Positions 1-9,313 of a stretch of 9,313 nucleotides of DNA are shown here, one piece after another. Numbering within the stretch: position 1 is the stretch's first letter; each line of letters opens with the position of its first letter. The stretch is taken from positions 1-9,313 of IMG/VR virus record IMGVR_UViG_2526164634_000020. One strand, given 5' to 3'. The position numbers and the translations under genes were made by a program. This DNA comes from a virus (Duplodnaviria > Heunggongvirae > Uroviricota > Caudoviricetes). Under the pieces are notes generated by a model. It had not been told where the DNA came from, made no database searches, and saw only the letters and a list, made by a program, of their open reading frames with translations.

Positions 1-1514
1 AACGATATTATTCCGGCCGACCACTGCCTGCATGATGTGCAGGATATGAGTACGCTGAATCATCCGAAGGCAGACCTGAGCAAAGGGCAGTACGGCTGTG
101 TCGGCCAGGGCTTACATATTGCCAAAAAACTGCTCCCGTATATCCCGAATAACGCGGGGATCCTGCTGGTACCATGCTGTCGTGGTGGTTCGGCATTCAC
201 CCAGGGCGCGGAGGGGGACATTCAGTGCGGACACGGGGGCCAGCCAGGATTCGGCACGCTGGGGGGTGGGTAAACCGTTATATCAGGACCTGATTGCGCG
301 CACTAAAGCTGCATTACAGAAGAACCCGAAAAATGTGTTGCTGGCGGTGTGCTGGATGCAGGGAGAGTTTGACATGAGCGCCGCCACCTACGCACAGCAA
401 CCTGCGCTGTTTACAGCCATGCTGAAGCAGTTTCGTGCTGACCTCACTGTGTTTAACGCGCAGTGTCATGGTGGCAGTGCTGTAAATGTGCCGTGGATTT
501 GTGGTGACACGACGTATTACTGGAAAAATACATACGCTACCCAGTACGACACCGTGTACGGCGGGTATAAAAACAGGGAGAGTGAGGGCGTTTATTTTGT
601 GCCCTTCATGACAGACGGTAACGGCGTCAATACCGCCACTAACGCACCGGCAGAAGATCCGGATATTCCGGCATCAGGATATTACGGTGCGGCATCGAGA
701 ACGAATGGAAACCAGGTATCATCAAACCGCCCGACACATTTCAGTTCATGGGCGCGCAGGAGCATTATTCCGGATCGTATGGCAACCGCTATTCTGAACG
801 CAGCCGGGCGCACCTCAGCTTTCATCAGTGGTAAGGCACCGGAAATCAAACCCTCGCCCGGCGTCGACACGCCATCGGGGCCGTCTGAAGATGCATCCGT
901 ACGCACAATCTCCCTGTTGCCGACAGCCGGAGAGGCTGCTGCGCAGGGCTGGACCATTAAGGACGGCGGAATTCAGTTGTCGGGTGGTGTATTTAAGATC
1001 GCCAAGCAGAGCAATAAAACCTGGTCCCTGATGCATCCGGTGGATGACGCAGTCTCCCTGCTGACACGGGGTGGCAGACTGAGCTGTAAGTTTCGACTGT
1101 CAGGCGCACTGACCAACAACCAGTTCGGCCTGGGAATTTATCTGTATACCGATGTAGCGTTACCTGACGTCGTGGCGATGACCGGGACTGGTAACCCGTT
1201 CCTGATGTCGTTCTTCACCCCAGACCACAGACGGCAAACTGAATCTGATGCATCACAAGAAAGCAGGAAACACAAAGTTGGGCGAGTTCGGGAATTACAG
1301 TAATGACTGGCAGACGCTGGAACTGGTGTTCACCGCCGGCAGTGCCACGGTTACTCCGAAACTGAATGGAGTGGCTGGCCCGGCATTCCAGGTCATAAAA
1401 GACAGTCTGACACTGGGGCTGAATGCGCTGACGCTGACGGATATTACCAAAAATGCAGCGTATGGCGTTGAGATAGAAAGTCTGGTGCTGGAGATAAATG
1501 CACCGGCAGCATAA
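1..1514 (+). pseudogene. nanS: Prophage sialate O-acetylesterase, NanS-p-like (SASA/DUF303 family), 5'-partial at window edge, two apparent +1 frameshifts
   Basis: Frame 1 from the window edge reads ...HCLHDVQDM...GQGLHIAKKLLPYIPNNAGILLVPCCRGGSAFTQGAEG; frame 2 continues ...TGASQDSARWGVGKPLYQDLIARTKAALQKNPKNVLLAVCWMQGEFD...PWICGDTTYYWK...TNAPAEDPDIPASGYYG...; I recognise these motifs from E. coli NanS and prophage NanS-p esterases. Frame switches at the G5 run 213-217 and again at the C4 run 1218-1221; the C-terminal part runs in frame 3 to the stop at 1512-1514. ORF-track entries 37..273, 98..1303 and 1248..1514 are pieces of this one gene. Confidence 0.6.
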
Positions 1515-1521
1515 TAAAAAA

Positions 1522-1551
1522 AGCCAGCGCCCACTCTGAAGGACGCTGGCT
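1522..1551 (-). terminator. Hairpin with flanking A/T run, candidate intrinsic terminator (better formed for minus-strand transcription)
   Basis: GCCAGCG (1523-1529) pairs with CGCTGGC (1544-1550), loop about 14 nt; A7 at 1515-1521 becomes a U-run after the stem only on the minus strand; plus-strand side is followed by TAAAAC. Confidence 0.3.
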
Positions 1552-1725
1552 AAAACGGGTAGATGTACTTCACATGATACTTATACTTGGCAGTACATTT
1601 TCTGACAGACAGTGACGGATGATGTCAAGATATTGTGTCATTTATAACCTGAATCAGGGGTGGCCGGAATGTTATCTGGCATTTTTAGCAGAGCCTGAAT
1701 GCCATAATCACGGCTCCCGGCGTTG

Positions 1726-1765
1726 GCCGTCAGTGGGTGACACTGGCGGCTTTTTTGTTTTTCTT
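1726..1765 (+). terminator. Strong rho-independent terminator upstream of the holin gene (tR-prime-like)
   Basis: 10-bp stem GCCGTCAGTG / CACTGGCGGC (one G-U pair), 5-nt loop GGTGA, then TTTTTTGTTTTT; sits 40 bp upstream of S. Confidence 0.55.
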
Positions 1766-1806
1766 TACTTTCATTTTCTGTCGGCGGTGACGGAGACATA
1801 CATCAG

Positions 1807-2013
1807 ATGGAAAAAATCACAACAGGTGTGTCATACACCACGTCAGCGGTGGGGACGGGATACTGGTTACTGCAGCTGCTGGACAAAGTCTCTCCGTCCC
1901 AGTGGGTGGCAATAGGTGTGCTGGGGAGTCTGCTGTTTGGCCTGCTGACGTATCTGACAAACCTTTATTTCAAGATTAAAGAAGATAAGCGTAAGGCTGC
2001 GAGAGGTGAATAA
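1807..2013 (+). CDS. S: Class II holin, phage-21 S-type pinholin (68 aa)
   Basis: [68 protein letters not shown]; two TMDs plus charged C-tail; near-colinear with my recollection of phage 21 S21; stop overlaps the R start (TAATG). Confidence 0.8.
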
Positions 2014-2510
2014 TGTCGCCGTCATTACGCAAGGCTGTTGCTGCTGCTATTGGTGGTGGGGCTGTTGCCATAGCGTCTGTGCTCATCACTGGTCCGAGTG
2101 GTGACGATGGCCTGGAAGGTGTCAGCTACATACCATACGAAGATATCGTTGGCGTATGGACTGTATGTCACGGACACACCGGAAAAGACATCATGCCCGG
2201 TAAAACGTATACCGAAGCAGAATGCAAAGCCCTCCTGAATAAAGACCTTGCCACGGTCGCCAGACAAATAAACCCGTACATCAACGTCGATATACCGGAA
2301 ACAACGCGCGGCGCTCTTTACTCGTTCGTTTACAACGTGGGCGCTGGCAATTTCAGAACATCGACGCTTCTTCGCAAAATAAACCAGGGCGATATCAAAG
2401 GCGCATGTGATCAGCTACGGCGCTGGACATACGCTGGCGGTAAGCAATGGAAAGGGCTGATGACTCGCCGTGAGATTGAGCGTGAAGTCTGTTTGTGGGG
2501 GCAACAATGA
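2013..2510 (+). CDS. R: SAR endolysin, phage-21 R-type lysozyme (165 aa)
   Basis: N-terminal Gly/Ala-rich signal-anchor-release segment [30 protein letters not shown] followed by lysozyme core [21 protein letters not shown]...; immediately follows the pinholin, typical pinholin/SAR-endolysin pairing. Confidence 0.9.
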
Positions 2511-2944
2511 GCAGAGTAACCGCGATTATCTACGTTCTGGTCATCTGCCTCATCGTCTGCCTTTCATGGGCTGTTAATCATTACCGTGATAACGCCATCG
2601 CCTACAAAGAGCAGCGCGATAAAGCCACATCCATCATCGCTGATATGCAGAAGCGGCAACGTGATGTAGCAGAACTTGACGCCAGATACACAAAGGAGCT
2701 TGCTGATGCTAATGCGACTATCGAAAGTCTCCGTGCTGATGTTTCTGCTGGGCGTAAGCGCCTGCAAGTCGCCGCCACCTGTGCAAAGTCAACGACCGGA
2801 GCCAGCGGCATGGGCAATGGAGAAACCCCAGGACTTACAGCAGATGCTGAACTCAATTATTACCGTCTCCGAAGTGGAATCGACAGGATAACCGCGCAGG
2901 TTAACTACTTGCAGGAGTACATTAGGACGCAATGCCTTCGATGA
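2507..2944 (+). CDS. Rz: Rz i-spanin (inner-membrane spanin subunit)
   Basis: ATGA start/stop overlap with R; [34 protein letters not shown]... N-terminal TMD plus coiled-coil periplasmic region, closely lambda-Rz-like. The ORF-track start at 2495 is GTG; ATG 2507 is the more likely start. Confidence 0.85.
2706..2891 (+). CDS. Rz1: Rz1 o-spanin lipoprotein, embedded in the +1 frame of Rz
   Basis: AAGGAG at 2693-2698 about 7 nt before ATG 2706; [20 protein letters not shown] with lipobox VSAC, then proline-rich [13 protein letters not shown] as in lambda Rz1; lies entirely inside Rz. Confidence 0.75.
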
Positions 2945-3016
2945 TAGCGATAATTTTCCCATTATCTTTCATATGCGTGATTTTAGTTAGTTTTAGTCGC
3001 AACACGAATAAAACAG

Positions 3017-3043
3017 AGAACCACCCGCTATACGAGTGGTTCT
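3017..3043. terminator. Bidirectional intrinsic terminator between convergent Rz and the minus-strand small ORF
   Basis: 8-bp stem AGAACCAC / GTGGTTCT with 11-nt loop; T-rich on both sides (plus: GATTTACACTTTTG; minus: CTGTTTTATTCG). Confidence 0.4.
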
Positions 3044-3060
3044 GATTTACACTTTTGAAA

Positions 3061-3291
3061 CTAAAAGCTAAATACTTGAGCAAGAACAGCTAGCGCTGCG
3101 CAAAAAGCAGCCCGTTTATTCCATTTACTTTGTATTTCAATGGCTTTAAAACAACCCAGTGATGAGAAACTGCCTTGTTCCGTTTTTGGTGGGTGTTCTT
3201 TGGAAGATGCAAAACATGAAATAATCCAAAAAATGGCGGAAAAAATTCCAAAAATTATTGAAGGCAAATGATGCTCTTTCAAAAACTCCAT
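3061..3291 (-). CDS. Hypothetical small membrane or lipoprotein-like protein (76 aa), AT-rich accessory gene
   Basis: MEFLKEHHLPSIIFGIFSAIFWIISCFASS...; hydrophobic N-terminal segment ending in a lipobox-like IISC; convergent with Rz and followed on its own strand by the 3017-3043 terminator. No family recognised. Several T homopolymers make the frame fragile. Confidence 0.35.
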   Translation of the reverse strand: MEFLKEHHLPSIIFGIFSAIFWIISCFASSKEHPPKTEQGSFSSLGCFKAIEIQSKWNKRAAFCAALAVLAQVFSF

Positions 3292-3903
3292 GACTTAACT
3301 CTCTTAAAAGTTGCTAAACATCGCTCGCAAACAAGAAAGAAAAGTTCTGTTGCGGGCACTCCACAATTTAAACGCCACACAAGCAGCTATTAGGTGGACG
3401 GTTCCAAGATTGCTATCAACTGCCACCCGAATACCGTCAAAACTTGACGTCCAACCAAGAATTATTGAGTTGTAAACTCAACGCAATGATCTGGTTGGTA
3501 TAAATGTGACATATGTCATGAATCGACTAGTTGAGATAGTCAAGATGGGCTTGCTTGACATCATCACCACAACCGGAGCCAACAATGGCAGATTGCGTTA
3601 CCCAGATTTGATAAAGGCATTTTAGCCTGACATAACTATGCACTGTATCGTCGCCGTATTCCCGCATCAACAGAGACCACAGCCCGAGAGGGAGACTCCT
3701 CTGCGCGAGTGTGCGGGGATAATCAAAAACGATACACACCGGGGTTTACCGTGTTAACGGAGCGCGGCGTTGTCCCCTCATGGTCGCTGGTCCGGTGCGA
3801 TGGTGGAAGAAACCGGACGATGTGTTACCTCGCAAGCTCTGTTATGTCATGTGTCTGATTTGTGATTTAAGTCGGATAATTGTCATTGCCATTAAGCAGA
3901 GGA

Positions 3904-3934
3904 TTGATGACCGACAGGGCTGCATTGTTAGAAT
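3904..3934 (+). promoter_or_regulatory. Candidate sigma70 promoter for the TonB_C lipoprotein gene
   Basis: TTGATG (3904-3909), about 19-bp spacer, TAGAAT (3929-3934), roughly 30 nt upstream of ATG 3967; pattern match only. Confidence 0.2.
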
Positions 3935-3966
3935 AAGACTTATTCTTATCTATGCCGGGAATAAAA

Positions 3967-4293
3967 ATGAAAAGAAATCTTCCGTTAATTATTTTGTTGT
4001 CTTCTTTGGTTATGGGCTGTACGCAACATAAAACAGATATGCCTCGACAGTTGGTTAAGGCATTACCACAATATCCGGCCTATGCCGCGGCAAATTATAT
4101 AAAGGGACGGGTTGATGTGAAGTTTGATATTGGTGCTGATGGTACTGTCACCCGAATTGAGTTTATCCGTTCAGAGCCGCACCATCTGTTTGATGAGCAG
4201 GTTGTAAAGGCGATGGCAAAATGGCGATTTGAGAAGGACAAGCCGCGTAAAGGCGTGAAGAAAACATTTATCTTTAGTCCTTCAGCACCCTGA
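3967..4293 (+). CDS. Outer-membrane lipoprotein carrying a stand-alone TonB C-terminal domain (about 108 aa)
   Basis: Signal peptide MKRNLPLIILLSSLVMGC with lipobox and +2 Thr; mature part LPQYPAYAAANYIKGRVDVKFDIGADGTVTRIEFIRSEPHHLFDEQVVKAMAKWRFEKDKP aligns motif for motif with the E. coli TonB C-terminal domain (QYPA..A....G.V.VKFD...DG.V......S.P...F...V..AM..WR.E..KP). The ORF-track start 3952 lacks an RBS; 3967 is preferred. Confidence 0.7.
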   Translation: MKRNLPLIILLSSLVMGCTQHKTDMPRQLVKALPQYPAYAAANYIKGRVDVKFDIGADGTVTRIEFIRSEPHHLFDEQVVKAMAKWRFEKDKPRKGVKKTFIFSPSAP

Positions 4294-4484
4294 TTATTTT
4301 ATCAGAAGTTAATTATCACTCTGTTGCTATTCAGTACATCCCTGCAGGGTAAAGTCTTGTTTCGCCGGATATGAAGATGAAATATTGTTAGAAGACAGTA
4401 GCTACCGGTTCCTGTAACCGAACGTTCATTTCTCGTTATTTTTCATGCTGGCCGGGCGCAGGTGCTTTGCACTGAGAGATCCCC

Positions 4485-5693
4485 TCATAATTTCCCCAAA
4501 GCGTAACCATGTGTGAATAAATTTTGAGCTAGTAGGGTTGCAGCCACGAGTAAGTCTTCCCTTGTTATTGTGTAGCCAGAATGCCGCAAAACTTCCATGC
4601 CTAAGCGAACTGTTGAGAGTACGTTTCGATTTCTGACTGTGTTAGCCTGGAAGTGCTTGTCCCAACCTTGTTTCTGAGCATGAACGCCCGCAAGCCAACA
4701 TGTTAGTTGAAGCATCAGGGCGATTAGCAGCATGATATCAAAACGCTCTGAGCTGCTCGTTCGGCTATGGCGTAGGCCTAGTCCGTAGGCAGGACTTTTC
4801 AAGTCTCGGAAGGTTTCTTCAATCTGCATTCGCTTCGAATAGATATTAACAAGTTGTTTGGGTGTTCGAATTTCAACAGGTAAGTTAGTTGCTAGAACCC
4901 ATGGCTCCTTTGCCGACGCTGAGTAGATTTTAGGTGACGGGTGGTGACAATGAGTCCGTGTCGAGCGCTGATTTTTTCGGCCTTTAGAGCGAGATTTATA
5001 CAATAGAATTTGGCATGAGATTGGATTGCTTTTAGTCAGCCTCTTATAGCCTAAAGTCTTTGAGTGACTAGATGACATATCATGTAAGTTGCTGATAGGT
5101 TTCCAGTTTTCCGCTCCTAGGTCTGCATATTGTACTTTTCCTCTTACTCGACTTAACCAGTACCAACCCAGCTTCTCAACGGATTTATACCATGGCACTT
5201 TAAAGCCAGCATCACTGACAATGAGCGGTGTGGTGTTACTCGGTAGAATGCTCGCAAGGTCGGCTAGAAATTGGTCATGAGCTTTCTTTGAACATTGCTC
5301 TGAAAGCGGGAACGCTTTCTCATAAAGAGTAACAGAACGACCGTGTAGTGCGACTGAAGCTCGCAATACCATAAGTCGTTTTTGCTCACGAATATCAGAC
5401 CAGTCAACAAGTACAATGGGCATCGTATTGCCCGAACAGATAAAGCTAGCATGCCAACGGTATACAGCGAGTCGCTCTTTGTGGAGGTGACGATTACCTA
5501 ACAATCGGTCGATTCGTTTGATGTTATGTTTTGTTCTCGCTTTGGTTGGCAGGTTACGGCCAAGTTCGGTAAGAGTGAGAGTTTTACAGTCAAGTAATGC
5601 GTGGCAAGCCAACGTTAAGCTGTTGAGTCGTTTTAAGTGTAATTCGGGGCAGAATTGGTAAAGAGAGTCGTGTAAAATATCGAGTTCGCACAT
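4485..5693 (-). CDS. tnp: IS10 transposase (402 aa), apparently intact
   Basis: MCELDILHDSLYQFCPELHLKRLNSLTLACHALLDCKTLTLTELGRNLPTKARTKHNIKRIDRLLGNRHL... matches the Tn10/IS10 transposase over its full length. Confidence 0.95.
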   Translation of the reverse strand: MCELDILHDSLYQFCPELHLKRLNSLTLACHALLDCKTLTLTELGRNLPTKARTKHNIKRIDRLLGNRHLHKERLAVYRWHASFICSGNTMPIVLVDWSDIREQKRLMVLRASVALHGRSVTLYEKAFPLSEQCSKKAHDQFLADLASILPSNTTPLIVSDAGFKVPWYKSVEKLGWYWLSRVRGKVQYADLGAENWKPISNLHDMSSSHSKTLGYKRLTKSNPISCQILLYKSRSKGRKNQRSTRTHCHHPSPKIYSASAKEPWVLATNLPVEIRTPKQLVNIYSKRMQIEETFRDLKSPAYGLGLRHSRTSSSERFDIMLLIALMLQLTCWLAGVHAQKQGWDKHFQANTVRNRNVLSTVRLGMEVLRHSGYTITREDLLVAATLLAQNLFTHGYALGKL

Positions 5694-5754
5694 CTTGTTG
5701 TCTGATTATTGATTTTTCGCGAAACCATTTGATCATATGACAAGATGTGTATCC
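5686..5754 (+). ncRNA. IS10 RNA-OUT antisense RNA (region retained in the truncated IS10)
   Basis: Position inferred from remembered IS10 coordinates (pOUT near nt 115 directed toward the outside end); the region contains the long imperfect inverted repeat ACATCTTGTTGTC...GACAAGATGT that forms the RNA-OUT stem. Boundaries approximate. Confidence 0.35.
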
Positions 5755-5844
5755 ACCTTAACGTAAGCGTACAGCCTGAACCGTCTGGTCAGAATCTGAC
5801 GAATTAGACAAAGTGGTGTCCACCAAATAAGTAGTGGGAACCAA

Positions 5845-5873
5845 TGAGGTAGCCTGAGTTTAACGGACACTCC
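5845..5873 (+). repeat. Left terminal inverted repeat of the IS3-family element
   Basis: See element entry; hand alignment, imperfect. Confidence 0.4.
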
Positions 5874-5908
5874 TTCCTGAAATAGAATGGCATCAGAAGG
5901 AGCTAATA

Positions 5909-7048
5909 ATGAGCAGAAAAACCCAACGTTACTCTAAAGAGTTCAAAGCCGAAGCTGTCAGAACGGTTCTTGAAAATCAACTTTCGATCAGTGAAGGTGC
6001 TTCCCGATTATCTCTTCCTGAAGGCACTTTAGGACAATGGGTTACCGCCGCCAGAAAAGGGCTCGGTACTCCTGGTTCCCGCACGGTGGCTGAACTGGAA
6101 TCTGAAATTCTGCAACTGCGTAAGGCGTTAAATGAAGCTCGCCTTGAGCGAGATATATTAAATTGCACAGGAGTCGCTGAAAAATACGCGTTAATCGAAC
6201 AATGGCGACAACAATTTCCCATTGAAGCGATGTGTCAGGTATTTGGTGTATCCAGGAGCGGTTATTACAACTGGGTACAGCATGAACCCTCAGACAGAAA
6301 ACAAAGTGATGAGCGGCTAAAACTGGAGATTAAGGTGGCGCATATCCGCACTCGCGAAACATATGGAACCCGGCAGCTCCAGACGGAGCTGGCAGAGAAT
6401 GGCATCATCGTTGGTCGTGACCGACTGGCACGTCTTCGTAAGGAGCTAAGGCTACGCTGTAAGCAGAAACGCAAGTTCAGAGCGACTACGAACTCGAACC
6501 ACAATCTGCCAGTTGCGCCAAATCTGCTGAACCAGACGTTCGCTCCTACAGCACCAAATCAGGTCTGGGTGGCGGACCTGACGTATGTTGCCACACAGGA
6601 GGGATGGTTGTACCTCGCTGGCATCAAAGATGTTTATACGTGCGAAATTGTCGGCTACGCCATGGGAGAGCGCATGACAAAAGAGCTGACAGGTAAAGCC
6701 CTGTTTATGGCGCTCAGGAGCCAGCGCCCACCTGCCGGGCTAATCCACCACTCTGATCGAGGTTCACAGTACTGCGCATACGATTACCGTGTCATACAGG
6801 AGCAGTTTGGTCTGAAAACATCAATGTCGCGTAAAGGTAACTGTTACGACAACGCTCCGATGGAAAGCTTCTGGGGAACGCTGAAAAATGAGAGCCTGAG
6901 CCACTATCGTTTTAATAACCGGGATGAAGCCATCTCAGTAATACGGGAATACATTGAGATTTTCTACAATCGTCAGCGTCGTCACTCTCGTCTGGGGAAT
7001 ATCTCCCCGGCAGCCTTCAGGGAAAAATACCATCAGATGGCTGCTTAA
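5909..7048 (+). CDS. IS3-family transposase, single fused OrfAB-type ORF (379 aa)
   Basis: AAGGAG RBS 7 nt before the ATG; N-terminal HTH (MSRKTQRYSKEFKAEAVRTV...) and leucine zipper (ELESEILQLRKALNEARLERDIL) typical of IS3 OrfA, joined in frame to an rve/DDE core (VWVADLTYV, HHSDRGSQYCA, NAPMESFWGTLKNE, NRQRRHSRLGNISP). Confidence 0.9.
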   Translation: MSRKTQRYSKEFKAEAVRTVLENQLSISEGASRLSLPEGTLGQWVTAARKGLGTPGSRTVAELESEILQLRKALNEARLERDILNCTGVAEKYALIEQWRQQFPIEAMCQVFGVSRSGYYNWVQHEPSDRKQSDERLKLEIKVAHIRTRETYGTRQLQTELAENGIIVGRDRLARLRKELRLRCKQKRKFRATTNSNHNLPVAPNLLNQTFAPTAPNQVWVADLTYVATQEGWLYLAGIKDVYTCEIVGYAMGERMTKELTGKALFMALRSQRPPAGLIHHSDRGSQYCAYDYRVIQEQFGLKTSMSRKGNCYDNAPMESFWGTLKNESLSHYRFNNRDEAISVIREYIEIFYNRQRRHSRLGNISPAAFREKYHQMAA

Positions 7049-7061
7049 AAAAAGAACAAAT

Positions 7062-7091
7062 GGTAGTGTCCGCTATTGCCAGTACACCTCA
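7062..7091 (+). repeat. Right terminal inverted repeat of the IS3-family element
   Basis: See element entry; hand alignment, imperfect. Confidence 0.4.
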
Positions 7092-7202
7092 ACATTCCAC
7101 CATGCATTCCGATTAACGCCGCATAGCCAGTTGGACTTTGCTACTTTGTGAGAGGTAGTACCTTCTATCCAGTGCGAATCTAATTAATGGAATAAATGAT
7201 TT

Positions 7203-9199
7203 ATGAGTGAAAATGATACAATCCCAAAGAAGTCTACAAGTCAGATTAACAAAGCGGTATTCTTTACATCTGCTTTGCTAATTTTCCTTCTTGTCGCCTT
7301 TGCCGCCGTATTCCCGGATGTCGCCGACAAAATTTTAAACTACTTCAGCAACAAATCTTCACGAATGCCAGCTGGTTCTACATCCTTGCTGTGGCCCTGA
7401 TTTTACTGAGTGTCACGTTCCTTGGACTCTCACGCTACGGTGATATCAAGCTGGGCCCGGACCATGCGCAGCCTGATTTCGGCCACCACTCCTGGTTTGC
7501 GATGCTTTTTTCGGCAGGGATGGGGATCGGCCTGATGTTCTTTGGCGTTGCCGAACCTGTAATGCATTATCTTTCGCCACCCGTTGGCACTCCAGAAACC
7601 GTTGCGGCAGCTAAGGAAGCAATGCGTCTGACCTTTTTCCACTGGGGACTGCACGCATGGGCAATTTATGCCATTGTGGCGCTGATTCTGGCGTTCTTCA
7701 GTTACCGTCACGGTCTGCCTTTAACTCTGCGCTCCGCACTCTATCCCATTATTGGCGATCGCATATACGGACCTGTAGGACATGCGGTTGATATTTTCGC
7801 TGTTATAGGCACGGTCTTTGGCGTTGCGACATCACTGGGTTACGGTGTTTTGCAGGTGAATGCCGGTTTGAACCATCTTTTCGGGGTGCCCATCAATGAA
7901 ACGGTGCAGGTAATTCTGATCGTGGTCATCACGGGGTTAGCGACGATTTCAGTGGTGTCCGGTCTGGATAAGGGAATACGTATCCTGTCTGAACTCAATC
8001 TGGGTCTGGCTTTGTTGCTCCTGGCGCTGGTCCTGTGTCTGGGACCAACCGTGCTTCTGCTGAAGTCATTTGTGGAAAATACGGGCGGTTATCTTTCGGA
8101 ACTGGTGAGTAAAACGTTCAACCTTTACGCGTATGAGCCCAAGTCGAGCAACTGGCTGGGGGGCTGGACATTACTGTACTGGGGATGGTGGCTTTCATGG
8201 TCGCCGTTTGTGGGGATGTTCATCGCACGGGTCTCCCGCGGGCGAACCATTCGCGAGTTTGTCACCGGCGTGCTGTTTGTTCCCGCGGGTTTTACGCTAA
8301 TGTGGATGACGGTGTTTGGTAACAGCGCGATCTATCTCATTATGAACCAGGGGGCCACAGACCTCGCCAATACTGTTCAGCAGGATGTGGCGCTGGCCCT
8401 GTTTAATTTCCTGGAGCATTTCCCGTTCTCTTCTGTGCTGTCATTCATTGCAATGGCGATGGTCATCGTCTTCTTTGTAACGTCTGCTGATTCGGGGGCA
8501 ATGGTTGTGGATACTCTGGCATCAGGTGGAGTGGCAAACACACCCGTCTGGCAGCGAATATTCTGGGCCTCGCTCATGGGCATTGTTGCAATTGCGCTTC
8601 TCCTTGCCGGAGGGCTAAGTGCGCTGCAAACGGTGACAATAGCGAGTGCATTGCCCTTCTCAGTGATCTTACTAATATCTATATACGGACTTTTAAAAGC
8701 TTTGCGCCGGGATTTGACCAAGCGTGAAAGCCTGAGCATGGCGACAATTGCTCCTACGGCTGCACGTAACCCAATTCCTTGGCAGAGAAGGTTACGCAAT
8801 ATCGCGTATCTGCCGAAGCGATCTCTTGTGAAACGTTTTATGGACGACGTTATCCAGCCCGCCATGACGCTGGTTCAGGAGGAACTGAACAAGCAGGGGA
8901 CGATAAGCCACATTAGTGATGCAGTCGACGATCGTATTCGTCTTGAAGTCGATTTGGGCAACGAGCTGAATTTTATATATGAAGTGAGGCTTCGCGGGTA
9001 TATCTCACCGACCTTCGCGCTCGCCGCAATGGATAATGATGAGCAGCAGACTGAACAACATCGATATTATCGCGCTGAGGTTTATCTCAAAGAAGGCGGT
9101 CAAAATTATGATGTGATGGGCTGGAACCAGGAACAGCTGATTAATGACATACTGGACCAGTACGAAAAACACCTGCACTTCCTGCACCTGGTTCGTTAA
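7203..9199 (+). CDS. BCCT-family transporter, BetT-like choline/betaine transporter, with apparent -1 frameshift near the 5' end (possible pseudogene)
   Basis: BCCT signature WTLLYWGWWLSWSPFVGMFIARVSRGRTIREF; C-terminal cytoplasmic tail resembles BetT. The N-terminus (7203-7355, frame 3: MSENDTIPKK...ADKILNYFSNK) continues as IFTNASWFYILAVALILL... in frame 2; the shift lies at the A3 run 7353-7355. ORF-track entries 7203..7400 and 7391..9199 are one gene. Confidence 0.8.
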
Positions 9200-9261
9200 T
9201 AGCAACATGCCGTCCTGGGGGCGGCAATTATTATCCCGGCCGCAATATGGGGGAATGCAGA

Positions 9262-9313
9262 ATGATTTCACGCTGGAAATGGATGCTGAAGCAGACAATT
9301 AAAAAACTATGGT
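9262..9313 (+). CDS. Possible 5' end of a downstream gene (partial, unknown product)
   Basis: ATG 9262 with G-rich SD-like GGGGGAA about 7 nt upstream; frame open to the window end (MISRWKWMLKQTIKKLW...). Too short to classify. Confidence 0.2.
   Translation, partial: MISRWKWMLKQTIKKLW

Follow-up and report, generated by a model that had tools for sequence, protein, structure and literature searches.

The lysis cassette and the phage portion of the window

The window, by which we mean the whole stretch of DNA analysed here, is the entire 9313-bp draft contig AIHD01000030.1 (assembly GCA_000250275), and both of its ends are assembly breaks at repeats. It makes up all that is visible here of the genome, and the absence of a gene past the contig ends carries no information. 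Judged by its sequence, the window content is an ordinary late-region fragment of a lambda-like E. coli prophage, running from nanS-p through a lysis cassette into the moron segment that lies before cos and terminase. The features of the phage portion are:

1-1514, plus strand: 3' part (codons 114-616 of 616) of nanS-p, a prophage gene for a SASA-family sialate O-acetylesterase
1725-1761, plus strand: intrinsic-terminator-like hairpin (1725-1751) with T run
1807-2013, plus strand: S, a 68-aa class II holin (phage-21-type pinholin)
2013-2510, plus strand: R, a 165-aa SAR endolysin, GH24 lysozyme of the R21/RrrD type
2507-2944, plus strand: Rz, a 145-aa i-spanin
2706-2891, plus strand: Rz1, an o-spanin lipoprotein of 61 aa (59 aa from the ATG at 2712)
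2945-4471, no strand assigned: low-GC phage segment
3061-3291, minus strand: 76-aa membrane ORF with two TM segments
3967-4293, plus strand: TonB_C-domain lipoprotein
4425-4471, minus strand: 3' remnant of a DUF3950 gene, ending at IS10

The order nanS-p, S, R and Rz/Rz1, described in an earlier note on this DNA as that of lambdoid late regions, is indeed present, with every gene on the plus strand and with family matches far above chance. S matches PF04971, 'Bacteriophage P21 holin S', over profile positions 1-63 of 64 (E 1.2e-32) and it also matches holin PHROGs. A simple hydropathy scan of S finds a single strong segment at residues 30-53; residues 8-26 are rich in Gly, Ala, Ser and Thr and fall below the scan threshold, as expected of a SAR-like TMD1. 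R matches PF00959 (E 1.5e-45) and, over its full length with E about 1e-107, both the RrrD lysozyme (4ZPU), to which it is about 96% identical, and 3HDE/3HDF, which we take to be R21 (the database entry says 'Lysozyme' only). It carries E35, D44 and T50, the catalytic residues as established for R21. A Gly/Ala-rich hydrophobic stretch occupies residues 6-31 of R, and residues 1-30 are near-identical to those of 4ZPU and 3HDE; by this N-terminal signal-anchor-release segment R is classed as a SAR endolysin, for which release from the membrane is predicted. Rz (PF03245, E 1e-34) has an N-terminal hydrophobic segment and its start overlaps the stop of R (ATGA). Rz1 (PF06085, E 2.4e-20) lies wholly inside Rz in the +1 frame and has the lipobox VSAC, and the pair has the features of a two-component spanin of the embedded architecture.

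The cassette had been called complete, of phage-21 type and intact, and we agree: the pinholin, the SAR endolysin and the embedded two-component spanin are undamaged, and no disabling mutation was found in S, R, Rz or Rz1. The interval 1661-3092 is identical to the complete prophages of two finished genomes, E. coli FDAARGOS_1059 and O111:H2 12A, each of which has a full terminase-to-tail set, and positions 1-4471 as a whole are 99.6% identical to them. The phage part had been thought to end at 2944; homology to complete prophages in fact runs on to 4471. What had been termed accessory DNA after Rz is the stretch that complete relatives ordinarily have between Rz and terminase. This segment is 99.9% identical to L001 and L015, has a GC content of 39-46% and contains the membrane ORF, the lipoprotein and the DUF3950 remnant, with family matches among them. 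Past this point the complete relatives go on to DUF3950, the small and large subunits of terminase, and portal, head and tail genes; in L001 the 5' part of DUF3950, cos and terminase occupy 24472-27408.

The damage to nanS-p had been overlooked. Its 3' part alone is in the window, as placed by alignment to the intact 616-aa gene of complete relatives (L001/L015), and as read it is frameshifted twice, by an extra G at 213 and an extra C at 1218, and the first stop codon falls at 271-273. When the two extra bases are removed the frame is open and there are 3 amino acid differences from the intact relative, whose nanS-p product has Pfam matches to DUF1737, SASA and DUF6645. The nanS-p product is 55% identical in protein sequence to chromosomal NanS. 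Entry of the phage fragment beside the chromosomal nan locus by nanS/nanS-p recombination was considered and rejected, DNA identity being just 69% over 290 bp. Likewise overlooked was a frameshift in the BCCT gene near the other end of the window, caused by the loss of one A at 7329.

In all, five 1-base indels separate the 9.3 kb from near-identical relatives (213, 1218, 1660, 7200 and 7329; that at 7200 is an extra T just before the BCCT start codon). All five are in homopolymer runs, two of them in non-coding DNA, and a protein look-up across assemblies found the fragment proteins created by the frameshifts in this single assembly only. Because the indels are all single bases in homopolymer runs, and because the fragment proteins are unique to one assembly, the frameshifts of nanS-p and BCCT most probably arose as homopolymer errors in the sequencing of this draft and not in the organism. 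As a counterpoint to the explanation preferred below, the frameshifts could be genuine private mutations.

Real frameshifts would make of the contig a decaying remnant in which selection has kept the lysis genes alone, a domesticated module like that proposed for DLP12. The distribution of the frameshifts, with two in nanS-p, one in BCCT and zero in S, R, Rz and Rz1, is consistent with such decay, and in K-12 the DLP12 lysis genes are reported to be undamaged and transcribed and to influence vesicle production (PMC7918800). However, single-base changes confined to homopolymer runs and extending into non-coding DNA form the pattern of sequencing error, as does the restriction of the fragment proteins to one assembly, and the lysis genes cover just 1.1 kb, too short a stretch for the lack of errors there to be significant. 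We regard a decaying remnant as doubtful. The fuller proposition, in which the remnant is real, the lysis module is under selection and its flanks are decaying, would represent a second, independent, IS10-generated case of DLP12-like domestication, for which a role in envelope turnover and vesicle production has been proposed; we consider it very improbable.

Control of the lysis genes and relation to known cassettes

The terminator-like hairpin has an 11-bp stem with 7 GC pairs, is followed by TTTTTGTTTT and lies immediately upstream of S; no promoter-like site was found between it (1725-1751) and S. Because a terminator directly precedes S with no promoter after it, the lysis genes are expected to depend on terminator-resistant, Q-modified late transcription, and their expression plausibly needs read-through from an upstream Q-dependent late promoter. 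That promoter and a Q-type antiterminator would act from upstream, off this contig; in complete relatives a Q-like protein (phrog_753, DUF1133) is encoded about 3.4 kb upstream of nanS-p. Once the genes are transcribed, and going by the functions of their families, the S pinholin would depolarise the inner membrane, the membrane-tethered SAR endolysin R would then be released and activated, and as the last step Rz/Rz1 would fuse the inner and outer membranes.

The S gene of phage 21 has two starts, which give the antiholin S71 and the holin S68, and this is a feature of the prototype and not of every family member. The cassette in the window shares with that of phage 21 its gene order and overlaps, an S protein in the Pfam family that is named after the P21 holin, an R protein that keeps E35/D44/T50 and an N-terminal SAR segment, and an Rz1 embedded in Rz. 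It differs in having nanS-p upstream and in an S with a single start (MEKITT...): the dual-start motif is absent from S, where there is a sole in-frame start after the preceding stop and a single Met in the protein.

The Stx phage records 1717, 2851 and JLK-2012 have a cassette 97-98% identical to that of the window. Unlike the window, these records and the prophages of FDAARGOS_1059 and 12A have an intact nanS-p and go on to DUF3950, terminase, portal, head and tail genes. A known parallel is DLP12 (essD, rrrD/ybcS, rzpD/rzoD), which has an intact S-R-Rz/Rz1 operon of phage-21 type in a lambdoid prophage that is unable to make virions, and Q-type antiterminator control has been reported for its lysis module in K-12 (PMC7918800). 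The decay of DLP12 is known from a finished genome, whereas the defectiveness of the prophage in the window rests on one draft contig; the two differ also in that the breakpoint here is IS10. Phage-21-type cassettes, nanS-p upstream of them and defective lambdoid prophages with a working lysis module are all already described in E. coli.

The IS10 boundary and the chromosomal side

The features beyond the phage portion are:

4472-5762, minus strand: IS10 (ISVsa5), with an outside end short of its final 38 bp
4485-5693, minus strand: IS10 transposase ORF, intact, 402 aa
5686-5755, plus strand: RNA-OUT
5763-5845, plus strand: chromosomal DNA (83 bp), usually found after an lpxM-like acyltransferase gene
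5846-7091, plus strand: IS600-family derivative with a fused 379-aa ORF at 5909-7048
7203-9199, plus strand: BCCT-family transporter gene, frameshifted as read

IS10 was delimited by alignment to a complete copy and its transposase matches PF01609; RNA-OUT (RF00240, 98.8 bits) is the sole Rfam family matched in the window, and a tRNA search found no tRNA gene there. From 5763 onward the chromosomal DNA is identical to L003-L005 and L007-L012. The IS600 derivative has Pfam HTH_Tnp_1 and rve matches, and its protein is found next to BCCT in 3383 blocks of the assembly collection and also in 12A; we read it as a fixed chromosomal resident beside the BCCT gene.

ORFs and family searches bear out the statement of the earlier note that the window has no terminase, head or tail gene and that two IS elements and the transporter gene follow instead. 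Within this contig it is an IS element that physically separates the lysis cassette from genes for packaging and morphogenesis. The point of the break has to be moved, from the end of Rz to IS10 at 4472.

The two junctions of IS10 differ. Phage homology ends exactly at 4471, where the inside end of IS10 starts, abutting the target TGCTTTGCA; the phage continuation after TGCTTTGCA is TTTGTTGCC. This 9-mer fits the IS10 target consensus NGCTNAGCN at 5 of the 6 specified positions, and it resembles TGCTTTGTC, the 9-bp duplication of a complete IS10 in L002. On the other side the outside end is 38 bp short. Because of this loss the IS10 copy should be immobile, and for the same reason the right junction is judged not to be a transposition junction; its origin calls for a second event, either a deletion or a rearrangement, or else for a mis-join in the assembly. 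A composite IS10 transposon carrying the phage fragment was rejected, the IS10 end being truncated at the chromosomal junction. As in IS10/Tn10-associated deletions and rearrangements, IS10 marks the place where phage DNA gives way to chromosomal DNA unrelated to it, and one of its ends adjoins a target that resembles the consensus. Deletions and inversions made by transposase keep both IS ends, however, whereas this copy lacks part of one, and the right junction was therefore made by another route.

Origin of the break and its significance

The most economical explanation is a real IS10-associated deletion. IS10 would have transposed into the phage DUF3950 gene at 4471/4472; an illegitimate deletion that followed, one endpoint of which lay 38 bp into the outside end of IS10, would have taken cos, terminase, head and tail and fused the phage remnant to the chromosome just upstream of the resident IS600 derivative and BCCT gene. 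Lacking cos and structural genes, the fragment could not make or package virions. Since the assembly continues across the 1.3-kb IS10 but stops at the repeats that bound the contig on either side, IS10 appears to be single-copy in this genome. A single copy favours one insertion and one deletion over scenarios with two IS10 copies. We favour, with modest confidence, a real truncation by IS10 insertion followed by deletion, in which the lysis cassette is left intact and Q-dependent and the frameshifts are sequencing errors. 'Truncated prophage' is nevertheless an inference from one 9.3-kb draft contig, which does not demonstrate loss of the structural genes.

The deletion route requires that the prophage lay upstream of the IS600-BCCT locus, that both faced the same way and that nothing but dispensable DNA stood in between. 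Counting against it is O111:H2 12A, which has a prophage of the same type and in which the two loci joined here are 1.5 Mb apart in opposite orientation. The same geometry speaks for a chimeric contig. On this reading a full-length IS10 is simply inserted in a prophage that is otherwise entire, a second, truncated copy stands before the IS600-BCCT locus, and the assembler mis-joined the left flank of the first to the right flank of the second by way of the 1.3 kb that they share. Such a prophage would be disrupted in the small DUF3950 gene alone and would retain its packaging genes. The contig is short and from a draft, shows signs of low quality in its five homopolymer indels, and has junctions that differ in kind, with a clean transposition end on one side and a truncated end on the other, all of which fits a mis-join. 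Junction-spanning queries found neither junction in any record of 5426 complete E. coli genomes, and the exact junction patterns had zero matches in the GTDB representatives and a metagenome collection; because neither was found in any collection searched, the junctions and their linkage have no independent confirmation, and this too is as a chimera would predict. Assemblers normally break at multi-copy IS elements, however, as this one did at both contig ends; a chimera needs more events, namely two insertions, a truncation and a mis-join; and there is no second IS10 flank to support it. A chimeric contig is in our estimation unlikely, though it has to be taken seriously.

The same comparison with 12A allows a third possibility, that a large chromosomal segment was inverted or moved, by recombination between two IS10 copies in inverted orientation or by some other rearrangement, and that cos and the terminase, head and tail genes of the prophage now stand at the reciprocal junction in another part of the genome. 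The late genes of 12A are on the minus strand at 3.15 Mb and its IS600-to-BCCT segment is on the plus strand at 4.656 Mb, which would make the join in the window an inversion-type junction. Such a junction in a 12A background is the 'inverted arrangement' by which the earlier note would have been refuted; the host here, however, differs in lineage. The chromosomal part of the window has 16 differing sites from 12A in 3.5 kb, which argues that the host is of another lineage, where the prophage may be integrated at another site. Inversions of 1.5 Mb that stay within one replichore generally carry a cost, and the two IS10 copies would persist, yet the assembler did not break at IS10. We hold a split prophage to be decidedly unlikely.

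The finding is an ordinary one and matters little. Its lesson is one of method: a truncated prophage that is read from a 9-kb draft contig with repeat ends and homopolymer indels should be accepted only once the complete genome or the reads have been consulted. Should the truncation that we prefer be real, the strain would carry a lysis module that is unable to spread as phage but that could still kill the cell under a Q-type antiterminator, supplied possibly by its own prophage or by a co-resident lambdoid prophage.

The lysis cassette and its predicted operation

The order nanS-p, S, R, Rz/Rz1, proposed in the earlier note together with intact lysis genes of the phage 21 type, is borne out by the ORF list, the family scans and the translations:

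1-1514 (+), 3' part of nanS-p, the prophage sialate O-acetylesterase gene
1807-2013 (+), S, pinholin, 68 aa
2013-2510 (+), R, SAR endolysin, 165 aa
2507-2944 (+), Rz, i-spanin, 145 aa
2706-2891 (+), Rz1, o-spanin lipoprotein, embedded within Rz

S matches 63 of the 64 profile positions of the Pfam phage 21 holin family (E 1e-32). A phage lysozyme domain is present in R, whose alignments with 3HDE/3HDF and with RrrD of the K-12 defective prophage DLP12 (4ZPU; 7 differences in 165 residues) span its full length; R also retains E35, D44, T50 and a Gly/Ala-rich N-terminal segment. Rz and Rz1 are each matched by their own Pfam family, and the lipobox of Rz1 is VSAC. Window positions 1661-3092 show zero differences from the complete prophages of E. 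coli FDAARGOS_1059 and O111:H2 strain 12A, and Stx phage records, 1717 and 2851 among them, share 97-98% identity with the cassette; the lysis genes are therefore intact, as had been claimed, and the phage 21 label is correct. The phage 21 prototype and K-12 essD have a dual-start antiholin/holin arrangement, whereas S in the window has only one possible start codon and thus encodes no S71-like antiholin form.

In the known families, the pinholin first builds up, then triggers and collapses the potential across the inner membrane; SAR endolysin next leaves that membrane for the periplasm in its active form, and the outer membrane is disrupted by the two spanins. By analogy, lysis by the window cassette would proceed from S to R and then to Rz/Rz1. 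A strong intrinsic terminator (1725-1751, followed by a T run) lies immediately before S, and no promoter-like site was found in the window between it and S, an arrangement suggesting that transcription of the cassette should come from upstream in a terminator-resistant, Q-modified form. The complete relatives encode a Q-like protein (phrog_753, DUF1133, weak Phage_antitermQ match) about 3.4 kb before nanS-p, in a region that lies outside the window contig. Directly past the nanS-p stop, and facing the late operon, is a strong minus-strand terminator-like hairpin (1522-1551; 11 pairs, 8 of them GC, then T7); no minus-strand gene that it might serve was identified.

Contig ends and single-base indels

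A look-up of its own proteins identified the window as the entire 9313-bp contig AIHD01000030.1 of draft assembly GCA_000250275.2, so both of its ends are assembly breaks. The left end falls within nanS-p, where the first 27 bases carry five third-codon-position differences from otherwise near-identical relatives, and the right end lies 14 bp before the point at which strain 12A has an annotated IS3-family remnant; at each end the assembly seems to have stopped in a repeat.

The state of nanS-p had been overlooked: intact copies in relatives encode 616 aa, and the window copy begins at codon 114. As read, it is frameshifted by an extra G in the G-run at 213, with a stop at 271-273, and by an extra C in the C-run at 1218; removing these two bases restores an open frame, in which three amino acids differ. 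Further homopolymer indels of one base occur at 1660 (non-coding), at 7200, just before the start codon of a BCCT transporter gene, and at 7329, which frameshifts that gene. Since all five indels relative to near-identical genomes, three of them gene-disrupting, lie in homopolymer runs of a draft contig, sequencing error seems a likelier origin for them than decay, and the pattern is one that pyrosequencing-type errors leave in draft assemblies. This contig alone encodes the resulting fragment proteins; every other assembly of the collection lacks them.

Phage DNA beyond Rz and the join to the chromosome

The phage part had been taken to end at 2944, with accessory DNA following it. This does not hold: homology to the complete prophages reaches 4471, and the low-GC stretch 2945-4471 is normal phage DNA, present before the terminase in both complete relatives. 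About 500 bp past the equivalent segment, both have terminase small and large subunits, portal, protease, capsid and tail genes. Features from Rz onwards are:

3061-3291 (-), 76-aa ORF with two TM/hydrophobic segments, matching only the unknown-function PHROG phrog_14357
3967-4293 (+), 108-aa lipoprotein with a TonB C-terminal domain (Pfam TonB_C)
within 2945-4471, remaining 3' part of a small DUF3950 gene
5846-7091, IS600-family derivative with a single 379-aa ORF formed by fusion of its two reading frames

The 76-aa ORF, probably a moron gene, is read in the direction opposite to the late operon, and a terminator-like hairpin comes after it on the same strand (3043-3017, -). PHROGs files the TonB_C lipoprotein as 'Rz-like spanin' (phrog_1267, E 3e-42); the genuine Rz/Rz1 pair sits upstream, and the label seems to have been transferred on the strength of gene position.

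An IS10 begins with its inside end at 4472 (CTGAGAGATCCCC...). It is preceded by nine phage bases, TGCTTTGCA, that conform to the target consensus of IS10, NGCTNAGCN, and resemble the duplication TGCTTTGTC around a complete IS10 of another genome. The transposase ORF is intact and a full RNA-OUT is present (5686-5762 region; Rfam RF00240, 98.8 bits). The element ends at 5762 with its outside end short by 38 bp, so this copy should be unable to transpose; that side is fused directly to chromosomal DNA located, in many E. coli, after an lpxM-like acyltransferase gene. Judged from the sequence, the junction at 4472 is a genuine transposition junction and that at 5762 is not. Neither was found in 5426 complete E. 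coli genomes, GTDB representatives or the metagenome set.

After IS10 come 83 bp of chromosomal DNA, the IS600 derivative and the BCCT gene. The assembly collection has 3383 blocks with the latter pair, and 1467 complete genomes contain at least 80% of 5763-9313. The IS600 derivative is a fixed neighbour of the BCCT gene: the identical protein, present in those 3383 blocks, stood in this context in all ten places read. In 12A (locus L017, 12197-19565) the pair belongs to the fec-leuX island, where a polysaccharide deacetylase gene, capU, virK and a second lpxM immediately precede it; this cluster is more familiar from virulence plasmids of Shigella and EAEC.

Truncation of the prophage is plausible but unproven, and we lean towards a real deletion as the origin of the join. 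The simplest history has two events: IS10 would have inserted into the prophage, and an illegitimate deletion from 38 bp inside IS10 to a point upstream of the IS600 derivative would then have taken away cos and all structural genes. A chimeric contig, mis-joined through two IS10 copies, would look the same; we consider it unlikely, as the assembler read through the 1.3-kb IS10 although it stopped in repeated sequence at either end of the contig, a sign that IS10 may be single-copy in this genome and a further point in favour of deletion. In 12A, with the same prophage type, the late genes (3.15 Mb, minus strand) and the IS600-BCCT pair (4.656 Mb, plus strand) are so placed that the join would be the inversion junction of a split prophage rather than a deletion junction. 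That reading is improbable: over 3.5 kb of chromosomal sequence the window has 16 differences from 12A and only about 5 from other genomes, so the host belongs to another lineage, whose prophage may sit at a different site.

Relation to known lysis modules

DLP12 carries the same type of module (essD, rrrD/ybcS, rzpD/rzoD), which is reported as intact and transcribed, as regulated by a Q-type antiterminator, RpoE and Hha, and as affecting vesicle production (PMC7918800). For Stx phages, nanS-p is reported to lie upstream of a P21-family pinholin (PMC10462455). The window does not depart from these precedents, and a lysis cassette in a lambdoid prophage fragment is a feature already known.
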